Part shown: piece after piece, positions 16,467-64,000 of the stretch | Layout: each line of letters begins with the position of its first letter | How positions within the stretch are numbered: position 1 is the stretch's first letter | From: a virus | Length of the DNA: 64,000 bases | IMG/VR virus record: IMGVR_UViG_3300017792_000017 | Coordinates: 1 to 64,000 of that record | Reading direction: 5' to 3' (one strand) | The notes under the pieces: model-generated | Told to the model about the DNA's origin: nothing | Seen by the model: only the letters and a program-made list of their open reading frames with translations | Databases searched by the model: none | Position numbers and translations under genes: made by a program

Positions 16467-17390
16467 ATGTTCAACAACAAGTACAACAACCGTCGTTGGA
16501 TCTACGGCATGATCGTAGGCGCTCTGATCACGTGGCTGGTCATGCACAATGCACACGCTCAGTCACTCACCGTGGCAACTGGCGGGCCGAAGGGTACGTA
16601 CTCGGCAATGTTCAAGGAATTGAATCAGCGCTGTGGTCTTGGCGAAGTTAAGGAAATCAACAGCCTCGGGTCGAACGACAACATCGACAAGCTGGTTGCC
16701 AACCAAGTCAACGGCGCAATCGTGCAGACTGACGTTCTCGTGCTTCGTGCGAAGACCGAAGATCTCTCGAAGATCAAGACGCTGTTCTCGCTTCACCCGG
16801 AACAGGTTCACTTCCTGGCTCGTGGAGATGGCGTGAAGGAAGGCGGCTTCATGGGTATCGGCGGAAAAGAGATCAAGTTCAACAACATCTCGGACCTTAA
16901 TGGTCGTACCATCGGCGCTGCTGGAGGCTCGGTTTTGACTGCGAAAGTGATCAAGTTCCAAGGCGGGCTTACGTACAACGTTCAGGAATTCAACACGAAC
17001 GCTGACGCCCTGTCCGCACTGACGAACAAACAAGTCGATGCAGTGGTCATCGTCGGCGGTCAGCCCATGAAAGAAATCGAAGCTCTGCCGTCGATCTTCA
17101 AGATCCTGGCTATTCCGGCTACGGTTCAAGACAAGCTCAAAGCGGTGTATCAACCGGCTCGTGTGAGTTACCGTAACCTGGGTGCGGCTGGCGTTCAGAC
17201 GGTATCGATCACTTCGCTTCTGGTTACGCGTGAATACAAGTCGGCCAAGTTCGTGAATGCGCTCAAGAACTATCGTGAGTGCTTCTACAACAATCTGGAT
17301 GATCTCCAGGAGACGACAGGTACGAGTCCGGCATGGCAGAACGTTGTCAAGTCGGATCAAGGCAAGTGGACGTGGAATGATCTGAAGTAA
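16467..17390 (+). CDS. TAXI-family TRAP solute-binding protein
   Basis: Signal peptide (AHA|Q), VATGGPKGTY, GSNDNI, IVQTD, LHPEQVH, GAAGGS. Confidence 0.8.
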   Translation: MFNNKYNNRRWIYGMIVGALITWLVMHNAHAQSLTVATGGPKGTYSAMFKELNQRCGLGEVKEINSLGSNDNIDKLVANQVNGAIVQTDVLVLRAKTEDLSKIKTLFSLHPEQVHFLARGDGVKEGGFMGIGGKEIKFNNISDLNGRTIGAAGGSVLTAKVIKFQGGLTYNVQEFNTNADALSALTNKQVDAVVIVGGQPMKEIEALPSIFKILAIPATVQDKLKAVYQPARVSYRNLGAAGVQTVSITSLLVTREYKSAKFVNALKNYRECFYNNLDDLQETTGTSPAWQNVVKSDQGKWTWNDLK

Positions 17391-62834: not shown

Positions 62835-62952
62835 GTTCCTATCTTAGTACTCTATTTTGGTATAAGAACTATGTAGTAAACATACGTCAATCCATGATTA
62901 TATCTTTAGGACTGGTGTAGTTATAAATATTCTACGAGAAAGGGTTTTTAAA

Positions 62953-63444
62953 ATGAGACTAATGTGTGGCGCAGTAATTGAACGTATTCCCAGCGTAGTT
63001 CTGACTGACGATCAGAAGCAGCAATGGGAGAGGTGGATCAATGCCCTTGAGTCTGGCGAGTTCAAGCAGACTACGTTCGCTCTAAGAGATGAGACTGGCT
63101 TCTGCTGTCTCGGGGTTGCTTGTAACCTCGTTGATCCAGAAGGTTGGACTTTTGATACTGGAGCACATGCGTACAGTTTTCTCCCGAATGAAGCTTGTTC
63201 TACAGAGAATGCTGTCAAGGACCATTTAACTCCTTTTGTTCGAGGTCATTACGGGTCTGAACTAGGTCCACTAGGACTGTACGTAGGAGGTAGATTTCCG
63301 GATGAGGAAGGGAATACTCTGGAATTACATTCTCTTTCATTATCAGGGATAAACGACATGGGTGCTACCTTCGTGGAAATAGCTGAGATCTTGAAAAAGG
63401 CAATGGACGGGGGATACACCCGTTCGGTTGCTCTGATCAAGTAG
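62953..63444 (+). CDS. CCLGVLC paralog family member 5
   Basis: WINALESGEFKQ...LRDETGFCCLGVAC...INDMGATFVEIAEIL. Confidence 0.8.
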   Translation: MRLMCGAVIERIPSVVLTDDQKQQWERWINALESGEFKQTTFALRDETGFCCLGVACNLVDPEGWTFDTGAHAYSFLPNEACSTENAVKDHLTPFVRGHYGSELGPLGLYVGGRFPDEEGNTLELHSLSLSGINDMGATFVEIAEILKKAMDGGYTRSVALIK

Positions 63445-63676
63445 CCATCGGGTGTCTTAAGTCTCGGGATTAGTTGCAGCCTCTTCTAGTCCCGAGGCTA
63501 TTTTTCAATTTTTTAGCTAATTTGGGTATAACAGTATTGTAAAGGCTGTGCATAGCTTTTATAGGTATCAGATATTTCAATAATTTAGAGATGTTTGGTA
63601 TAACTATACTGGACAGGTAGAAAATACATTTCCAAAGTCCATCTTTTTATTTAGCTAAAACAAAGGATTTACCCAA

Positions 63677-64000
63677 ATGGCTGCAACCGTAACCAAGACT
63701 ATCGTTACCATCGCTTCGACCGACACCGAGTATCAAATTCCGGGTGATTACACACCGGCTTCGATCCAACGCAACTACGCTAACGATATTCCTAATATCG
63801 GCAGCATGCAATTCGAAGAGCGTGTCGTTACGCAAGACGGTGAAACGGTTCGTGAAATCACCTTCAAGCCCCGCACGGGTACGAAGGGCGCTGGTGTAAC
63901 GAAGACTATCGTGACCATCGCTTCGACGGACACGGAGTACCAGATTCCGGGTGACTACACCCCGGCATCGATTCAACGCAATTATGCGAACGACATCCCG
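63677..64000 (+). CDS. Tandem-repeat ubiquitin-like protein (Prok_Ub / PRTRC-C-like), runs off the window
   Basis: AAGGA RBS; 71-aa unit ending ITFKPRTGTKG (63889), then AG and an identical second copy. Confidence 0.75.
   Translation, partial: MAATVTKTIVTIASTDTEYQIPGDYTPASIQRNYANDIPNIGSMQFEERVVTQDGETVREITFKPRTGTKGAGVTKTIVTIASTDTEYQIPGDYTPASIQRNYANDIP

Follow-up and report, generated by a model that had tools for sequence, protein, structure and literature searches.

A polyubiquitin-like gene heads a putative, diverged PRTRC-type conjugation cassette in a clade of large phages

The 64,000-nucleotide (nt) stretch of DNA analysed here (hereafter the window; positions 1 to 64,000 of IMG/VR virus record IMGVR_UViG_3300017792_000017) ends within a gene that encodes a tandem ubiquitin-like (Ubl) protein. 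The record is 144,968 nt in length, with an estimated completeness of 79%, and derives from an uncultured phage of ~180 kb; positions above 64000 are contig coordinates that continue the numbering of the window. Read to its end, the Ubl open reading frame (ORF; 63677–64099, + strand) encodes 140 amino acids (aa) arranged as two head-to-tail units of 69 aa, and is the first gene of a cassette that also encodes an E1, an E2 and a JAB protease. The ORF is probably a polyubiquitin-style precursor of a phage Ubl, from which the JAB protease encoded next door would release two modifiers by cutting after Gly71, for conjugation to targets by the E1 and the E2.

Two units with identical cores

The initial annotation, made from the window alone, had described an ORF absent from the ORF track, with a first unit of 71 aa that ends ITFKPRTGTKG and is followed by the dipeptide AG and a second copy, at a period of 207 nt. 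All of this was reproduced exactly: the frame is open from 63677 to 64000 and runs on to a stop codon at 64097–64099, giving two units in total and no more. The tail F-K-P-R-T-G-T-K-G is complete in both units, no spacer separates them, and the tail of unit 2 abuts the stop codon.

Over codons 5–39 (63689–63793 versus 63896–64000), a comparison by codon table gives 16 synonymous and no non-synonymous differences, the same count as first reported. Over the whole repeat of 69 codons, 36 of 207 nt differ (17%), corresponding to 31 synonymous codons and a single non-synonymous one; this sole replacement, T4 versus G73, lies at the junction. The 67-aa core therefore shows 30 synonymous and no non-synonymous differences between unit 1 and unit 2 (NG86 estimate of synonymous substitutions per synonymous site (dS), 1.33–1.43). 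The differences are silent when read in the + frame and in no other, which identifies it as the coding frame; an antisense ORF at 63647–64042 was rejected as coding and is a shadow of the + frame ORF. One pair of codons, Ser43/Ser112 (63803–63805 versus contig 64010–64012), belongs to different serine families, AGC versus TCG, whereas a related assembly, L029, has TCG in both units. At least two base changes, passing through a codon for another amino acid, would be needed for such a switch, unless a very short tract of conversion covered codons 43–45.

The same two-unit gene is found in at least five other assemblies (L005–L008 and L029), with further silent differences. Compared with L005, the Ubl gene of this genome shows 22 differences, all of them synonymous (dS 0.26), against dS values of 0.75–2.4 and 54–94% protein identity for its neighbours (~72–74% for E2 and E1, ~54% for p305, the gene that follows the Ubl gene). 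This makes it the most highly conserved gene of the locus. A maximum-likelihood tree of unit DNA places the second units from five assemblies in a single clade (support 100/99), and nucleotide distances agree. The duplication thus predates the three lineages sampled, with no whole-unit conversion since, and the claim of an old duplication under strong purifying selection holds up, the selection being very strong.

The only core replacement among these assemblies is at residue 26, which is Ser or Thr: both L029 units have Ser (TCG and TCC), as do single-unit outgroups, and both units elsewhere have Thr (ACG or ACA, and ACC). The third base is specific to the unit and the flanking silent differences are kept, so that this is a parallel change rather than a conversion tract. 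We put the probability of such a coincidence at roughly 0.005–0.1.

Identical or nearly identical units recur in other lineages. Units of L029 do not differ in their core, as in this genome; those of L082 have no core differences at dS 0.74–0.84, those of L015 one at dS 0.67 and those of L030 four at dS 0.90. Single-unit orthologues at comparable dS differ at 4–21 of ~64 positions; for example, the single units of L009 and L010 are separated by 17 aa differences at dS 0.54. Likewise, L082 and L079 differ from each other by 7–10 aa, and the two units of L082, equally distant at silent sites, by none. In a protein tree, the units of at least 14 tandem proteins are mutual nearest relatives, interspersed with single-unit forms, which points to repeated duplication or periodic homogenization, followed by what would be unusually strong constraint. 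In P0004 and P0005, six positions differ between the two proteins, and each does so in both units. The idea that selection against inter-repeat recombination drives the silent divergence, which would space the silent differences more evenly than expected by chance, was considered and is unsupported: in a test of low power, none of seven genes had longest identical runs (14–38 nt) below those of 20,000 shuffles (P 0.14–0.96).

A complete, putative conjugation cassette downstream

The cassette consists of the genes for Ubl, p305, p85, E2, JAB and E1, in that order and all on the + strand, with E2, JAB and E1 located 1.3–4.2 kb downstream of the Ubl gene (Table 1). The initial annotation had proposed reading past position 64000 for E1, E2 and JAB neighbours; all three are there on the same strand, each scoring above its Pfam cut-off.

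Table 1 Features of the Ubl locus and Ubl genes of cultured relatives
Feature	Position	Strand	Details
Gene for 163-aa protein	62953–63444	+	163 aa; PHROG 18067 (unknown function), E 4e-15; between terminase and Ubl gene
Promoter-like site P1	63504–63532	+	TTCAAT-N17-TATAAC; G-G before TATAAC, extended -10 type; genome-wide motif
Promoter-like site P2	63576–63604	+	TTCAAT-N17-TATAAC; TGG before TATAAC; proximal site, kept in L005, L009 and L010 at -67 to -83
Shine–Dalgarno-like site	63663–63667	+	AAGGA, 9 nt ahead of ATG
Ubl unit 1	63677–63889	+	M1–G71; tail FKPRTGTKG
Ubl unit 2	63890–64096 (window part 63890–64000)	+	A72–G140; core protein identical to that of unit 1
Structured terminator-like region	64137–64188	+	9-bp hairpin, 64137–64145/64164–64172; T8 run, 64181–64188
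p305	64238–65155	+	No family match; in all relatives, 15–54% identity
p85	65112–65369	+	85-aa ORF; overlaps p305 end and E2 start; its stop overlaps E2 ATG
E2	65366–66118	+	Prok-E2_D PF14460, 31.8 bits (cut-off 25)
JAB/JAMM protease	66133–67446	+	Prok-JAB PF14464, 38–41 bits (cut-off 25)
p72	67948–68166	+	72 aa; zinc-ribbon type, C-x2-C ... C-x2-C; just before E1 promoter-like site
E1, ThiF type	68243–69514	+	PF00899, 56.9 bits (cut-off 28.1)
Ubl of Salmonella phage Arash	L028:10514–10714 = OQ632216.1 ~180513–180713	-	Complement; overlaps annotated gp251c
Ubl of Vibrio phage D69 (VPHD69_0307)	L035:5388–6179 = OZ195729.1 177294–178085	+	263 aa; annotated as hypothetical protein

Residues expected of working enzymes are conserved in an alignment of 15 lineages. 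The E2 carries the motif P-F-P-N-x-Y-x4-M-C-x-G-x-N, in which N and C are invariant; the JAMM signature (E101 and HSH-x7-S-x2-D at about residues 146–159) is kept in at least 80% of lineages; and E1 retains the Gly-rich loop G-x-G-G-T-G, the K-N-L-x-R-Q motif and a Cys that is invariant. Among NCBIfam models, the best matches are PRTRC_A for JAB (78 bits), PRTRC_B for E2 (24 bits) and PRTRC_ThiF for E1 (93 bits), all below the equivalog cut-offs. The E1 also matches weakly the ThiS and MoaD adenylyltransferases and the anti-phage 6A-MBL Cap2 model. Searches found no close solved-structure relatives of JAB or E1. As for the intervening genes, p305 has no family match, no Atlas lead and no similarity to its positional counterpart in the plasmid PRTRC operon, and an ORF of 80–128 aa occupies the position of p85 in all 14 related loci examined.

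Predicted fold and family membership of the Ubl unit

An AlphaFold2 model of the unit, built from an alignment of 30 single-unit sequences, has the topology β-β-α-β-β (strands 5–12 and 17–22, helix 27–34, strands 45–53 and 56–64), with a predicted local distance difference test score (pLDDT) of 89.9 and a less confident tail. When compared with solved structures, the model gave weak top rows in Foldseek, namely p47 UBX, a trypanosome Ubl, GABARAPL2, SUMO, NEDD8, MoaD and the Ubl of a bacterial E1–E2–Ubl complex, none of them at E ≤0.001. A structure search independent of Foldseek gave Z scores of 4.0–4.9 for TINCR Ubl, MoaD, Fubi, FAT10, ISG15, SUMO and ubiquitin, and solved structures searched with a profile built from the family alignment gave no match at E ≤10. 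The β-grasp fold that had been anticipated from the window is thus the predicted one, with ubiquitin-like proteins and MoaD as its best, weak matches in the PDB, and once the gene neighbourhood is added these small-domain matches agree with a β-grasp modifier. In a model of the full 140 aa, two such domains are formed and pLDDT drops below 50 only at residues 68–72 and 137–140; since the predicted template modelling score is 0.46 and pLDDT is low at the junction, the domains lack confident packing on each other. This model suggests a flexible junction, with the domains arranged like beads on a string.

Supporting but sub-threshold profile matches link the family to the plasmid PRTRC_C proteins. 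A profile of the phage family aligned to plasmid PRTRC_C end to end with hhalign (E 3.6e-4), and among relatives PF14454 (Prok_Ub) has a precomputed match in 9 of 22 homologues and is matched at E ≤0.01 by 4 of 30 single-unit relatives. Pfam and PHROG searches with the Ubl itself gave nothing usable.

A proposed cleaved precursor and its alternatives

In the mechanism that we propose, one or two promoters of the extended -10 type would drive the Ubl gene, with a terminator-like structure behind it, such that the modifier would be made in excess, the enzymes would be reached by read-through and E1 would have its own promoter. The JAB protease would cut after Gly71, yielding two essentially identical 7-kDa modifiers, each with a free C-terminal Gly; E1 would adenylate this Gly and pass the Ubl to the E2 cysteine, from where it may be attached to a phage or host protein target. 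Doubling the unit would double the yield per transcript. Both copies would have to fit the same E1, E2 and JAB, so that amino acid changes would be tolerated only if they occur in both copies; this requirement would explain identical proteins over saturated silent sites.

Two features of the relatives bear on the cut itself. Several carry 1–23 residues after the G-x-K-G tail (17 in L012, 23 in L022, AKR in L024, ILA in P0017, 14 in P0022, C in L069, ND in L078 and INYSK in Vibrio phage D69), so that the family requires a protease to expose the Gly. Most tandem forms resume after GTKG with the Ala that comes second in unit 1, behind the initiator Met, and unit 2 of P0004 and P0035 is unit 1 without its Met. 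With junctions this precise, cleavage together with Met removal would yield identical products. The C-terminal extensions of relatives and the identity of the units thus favour a putative cut by JAB at the internal GTKG|AG, with indirect backing from the intact motif of the neighbouring JAMM protease and the low model confidence at the junction.

Several results weigh against this reading. At family level, the Ubl protein has no match to PF14454 at E ≤10, and its 15.1 bits against TIGR03738 (PRTRC_C) are below the cut-off of 45.95; the fold matches are weak (Foldseek E ≥0.04, Z ≤4.9). Not every lineage keeps its units identical: those of L031 differ at 8 core positions (dS 1.07), those of L079 at 7–9 (dS 1.36) and those of L078 at 26 (dS 0.67). 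The dS values are near saturation and distorted or compressed by codon bias, and the ages that they imply are lower bounds. Residue 26 is a helix N-cap that toggles between Ser and Thr across the family, and the chance of coincidence there is not negligible. Finally, in the three-unit protein of Vibrio phage D69 (below), spacers of 21 aa and ~55 aa would stay on the next unit after a single cut at each GTKG, and bacterial Bil/Bub modifiers are commonly composed of two or three β-grasp domains that act uncut (PMC11601603).

This last point leads to the strongest alternative, which we regard as unlikely but worth serious weight: that the protein is an uncut two-domain modifier, similar to ISG15 and FAT10 or to Bil/Bub, of which only Gly140 is conjugated and in which the internal GTKG is an inherited linker. 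Multi-β-grasp modifiers are the rule in bacterial Bil/Bub operons (PMC11601603), and two- and three-domain Ubls, 'reminiscent of poly-ubiquitin', were listed in bacterial E1/E2/JAB operons by Iyer et al. in 2006 (PMC1779556). In the P0009–P0019 clade, L031 and L078, the units have diverged and sort by position across orthologues, as expected of domains with different roles, and an uncut protein fits these lineages better, as it does D69, whose spacers are awkward for a simple precursor. Differing roles should however give divergence, and here, in L082 and in L015 the cores are identical or within one residue over dS 0.7–1.4. ISG15/FAT10- or Bil/Bub-like modifiers would have differing domains and a tail only on the last; the domains here are identical and both have the tail, its nine residues complete at the junction, and the one replacement observed occurred in both units. 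The junction is predicted to be disordered, the domains are not confidently packed, and most relatives manage with one unit.

A second alternative, which we consider quite improbable, dispenses with conjugation by the phage: the Ubl would be a decoy or inhibitor of host Ubl-based defence (Bil, CBASS Cap2/Cap3), or a ThiS/MoaD-like sulfur carrier for nucleotide or cofactor modification. An apparent excess of Ubl under its own promoter and terminator would suit this alternative, as would the weak E1 matches noted above; the non-Ubl proteins of the cassette evolve fast, like conflict genes, and on plasmids the PRTRC operons have methylase and nuclease genes around them. Yet a decoy needs no E1, JAB or E2 with a conserved Cys of its own, and 34 of 34 relatives retain all three. 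An E2 is absent from sulfur-carrier systems, and the cassette showed no partner of the sulfurtransferase or rhodanese type. Presence throughout a deep clade (terminase 43–100% identical) is unlike the patchy distribution of a counter-defence gene. The initial annotation had left the choice between a phage conjugation system and a decoy undecided; the full E1/E2/JAB set in every relative favours conjugation, and nothing was found that speaks for the decoy in particular. That the repeat is an artefact, either a mis-assembled duplicate or a non-coding stretch open by chance, is close to inconceivable: although the gene runs off the window and was missing from the first track, its units differ at 36 of 207 bases, silently in all but one codon, and it recurs in independent assemblies and many homologues.

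We therefore retain the cleaved precursor as the preferred reading. A broader proposal is more tentative, and we lean against it as a whole: a deep clade of large lytic phages may run its own Ubl conjugation as a core function, supplied by poly-Ubl precursors that contain one to three units, with the copies selected to be identical in the absence of DNA homogenization and replacements fixed only in both copies (Ser/Thr26), and with tagging of phage or host proteins needed for infection.

Relation to known systems

The closest counterpart is the PRTRC system of plasmids and integrative and conjugative elements. The best family matches of the Ubl, JAB, E2 and E1 proteins are to PRTRC C (TIGR03738), A (TIGR03735), B (TIGR03737) and ThiF (TIGR03736), respectively. 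On the conjugative plasmid pAZI09, the order is E, C, a 78-aa protein, a 339-aa protein, B, A and ThiF, matching the phage gene order. The initial annotation had stated that Ubls of the Prok_Ub/PRTRC-C type are about 70 aa long and end in GTKG; this is borne out by the canonical plasmid C protein, which in pAZI09 has 69 aa and ends GVGTKG, as the phage units have 69 aa and end GTKG. The phage system differs in the long C-terminal extensions of JAB and E1 and in its middle proteins, which are unrelated (p305 versus the 339-aa plasmid protein). It is found beside the terminase gene in large phages of lytic type and not in conjugative elements, and its Ubl is duplicated or triplicated in several lineages. 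PRTRC_D, PRTRC_E and PRTRC_F (TIGR03739, TIGR03741 and TIGR03742) had no match at E ≤10 in the 145-kb record, which covers ~79% of the phage, and no ParB was seen in the cassette, although no ParB-directed search was made. We classify the cassette as a diverged PRTRC-type system that belongs to the core of a phage clade and draws on a polyubiquitin-style precursor.

The repeat itself resembles eukaryotic polyubiquitin genes, reportedly treated by Sharp and Li in 1987 and by Nei, Rogozin and Piontkivska in 2000. Polyubiquitin is composed of spacer-less repeats with full tails, in which identical proteins are encoded by copies near saturation at silent sites; some genes add residues after the last Gly, and deubiquitinases release the monomers. 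The phage gene shares the spacer-less repeats, the full tails, the protein identity over silent divergence and, in some members, the tail extensions. It differs in having two units (one to three in the clade) rather than three to ten or more, and in that the protease expected to act is a JAMM enzyme encoded next door. Orthologues of the phage Ubl are not universally conserved as ubiquitin is, with 7–21 of 64 positions differing among single-unit relatives at dS 0.5–1.0, and cleavage of the phage protein is a proposal on our part.

A precedent for the proposed cut is provided by archaea, in which HvJAMM1 cleaves both isopeptide-linked conjugates and linear fusions of Ubls. The archaeal SAMP/HvJAMM1 system shares with the phage cassette a prokaryotic JAMM protease, which in archaea acts on Ubl linkages (PMC4443979); it is however cellular, has no E2 and is unrelated in sequence. 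Bacterial Bil/Bub operons likewise bring together a Ubl, a deubiquitinase, an E1 and an E2, and their modifiers have two to three β-grasp domains (PMC11601603; bioRxiv 10.1101/2023.09.04.556158), but they serve in host defence with diverged domains acting as a unit, whereas the phage set has identical tailed units and enzymes of the PRTRC/Prok-E2_D branch. Closer to phage biology, the tail proteins I and K of lambda and T1 combine a phage β-grasp domain with a conserved C-terminal Gly and, beside it, a JAB peptidase predicted to release it (PMC1779556). These are found without E1 or E2, with the Ubl fused to another domain and within the tail genes, whereas here the full set lies on the strand opposite the structural genes. 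A literature search of full texts outside subscription journals found no description of a complete phage E1/E2/JAB/Ubl set or of a phage poly-Ubl.

Bacterial Ubl conjugation has recently been shown to be an anti-phage weapon (Bil, CBASS Cap2/Cap3), and here a complete toolkit is found on the side of the phage. Culturable carriers (Salmonella phage Arash and Vibrio phages D69, D148 and D181) put the question of what the phage tags, and why, within reach of the bench, and make the cassette a tractable model for the uncharacterized PRTRC family, which plasmids and conjugative elements carry widely. The repeat presents the polyubiquitin puzzle in compact form, and the pattern has arisen several times independently, in small genomes where DNA trees separate conversion from selection. 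In practical terms, the Ubl gene is mis-annotated in Arash and unrecognized in D69.

Distribution in a clade of ~180-kb phages

A homologue search returned 46 representative clusters at E ≤0.001, of which ~41 are family members; a handful are chance matches to unrelated repeat proteins, as confirmed for two on reading and presumed for three long ones. Most members are single units of 64–73 aa that end G-[TN]-K-G; there are several two-unit forms, and the clade ranges from one to three units. A word-index search for proteins of at least three units, or fusions of at least 246 aa, found none; the three-unit protein of D69 was found by reading its locus. There was no match to the unit (tblastn) or to the region (blastn) in 50,697 phage records, and no close relative in a tail-motif scan of 185,579 species-representative prokaryotic genomes. 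A metagenome scan yielded five loci.

Seeding with the Ubl tail recovered 23 IMG/VR loci with terminase identities of 50–100%. These share one layout, with the large terminase gene on the opposite strand followed by Ubl, p305, E2, JAB and E1, except for L027, in which the terminase gene is not adjacent to the cassette. Seeding with the terminase recovered 48 loci, 34 of which have at least 4.6 kb upstream; 33 of these 34 carry the cassette within 9 kb, and the remaining one is the contig of L027, with the cassette ~9 kb further on. One Ubl in this set has a G-A-K-G tail. The cassette is a core feature of this clade of ~180-kb phages, because it is found in 34 of 34 terminase-seeded contigs with enough flank. 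Translated straight along its tblastn coordinates, the terminase match in L022 (1085–2683, - strand) is interrupted by three stop codons, which a sequencing error, an insertion or a frameshift could explain.

Among cultured phages, the nearest are Salmonella phage Arash, whose terminase is 46% identical, and Vibrio phages D69, D181 and D148; all of them carry E1. The Arash Ubl is a 66-aa ORF with one unit that ends R-R-T-G-T-K-G and aligns to the family with hhalign at E 4e-8 (Table 1). It is missing from the GenBank annotation, where gp251c has been called in a different frame as a hydrophobic peptide, and the Arash paper makes no mention of ubiquitin (PMC10585845). The 'structural protein' labels of the Arash E1 and E2 were not used as virion evidence: the 116-protein particle proteome includes RNA polymerase and ribonucleotide reductase, and its numbering maps uncleanly onto the GenBank tags. 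In D69, VPHD69_0307 is composed of three diverged units, each ending T-G-T-K-G and separated by spacers of 21 aa and ~55 aa (acidic), and I-N-Y-S-K follows the final Gly; the genes downstream include those for E2 (with its N and C kept), JAB and E1.

Expression signals

Two tandem early promoters upstream of the Ubl gene (63523 and 63595) had been called initially; both are present as promoter-like sites that match a motif recurring in the genome (Table 1), and an early timing is presumed from their sigma-70-like form. GGTATAA occurs at 47 sites in the record versus 24 expected, 40 of the 47 on the + strand, most of them in the context TTCAAT-N16/17-TGGTATAA(G/C). Related loci have one or two such sites 67–201 nt upstream of the Ubl gene. 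Between the Ubl stop and ~68160, where one sits just before E1, there is no such site. A generic sigma-70 and terminator scan called neither the promoter-like sites nor the hairpin downstream. As a side observation, a promoter-like motif TTCAAT-N16/17-TGGTATAAG-N4-TTG is found in ~35 copies in the contig, almost all on the + strand (for example at 1446, 4915, 6604, 10096, 12023, 20404 and 62859), and the terminase and large structural-looking genes are on the - strand, which suggests two putative transcription classes split by strand.

The region after the Ubl stop folds strongly (-52.5 kcal/mol, z -4.85), and nearly all relatives have a G+C-rich stem and T7–8 directly after the Ubl gene, with a promoter-like site ahead of it. 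In this genome, contig 64100–64240 (+) has three consecutive hairpins, and further on lies an A-rich run, AAGAAAAACAGG, with which the T8 run can pair; such pairing might modulate termination and read-through into p305. The G+C content at third codon positions (GC3) of the Ubl gene, 0.657, ranks fourth among 148 ORFs (median 0.41) and, like the promoter-like sites and the terminator-like region, is a sign of high expression. The three ORFs with higher GC3 (0.66–0.74), at contig 128657–129196, window 16467–17390 and contig 121626–122000 (+), are assigned to PHROG 'unknown function' and are possibly other very highly expressed genes.

Neighbouring genes

A few small ORFs lie between JAB and E1. 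Among them, p72 was considered as an E3 candidate; its conservation stops at the closest relatives (L005, L009 and L010), so it does not belong to the core of the cassette, although it could be an accessory adaptor. On the other side of the Ubl gene, the 163-aa protein is 62% identical in L005 and 44–50% identical in L009–L011, and was not detected in more distant loci. The gene for this protein (62953–63444) has its own TGGTATAAG site, at 62859.

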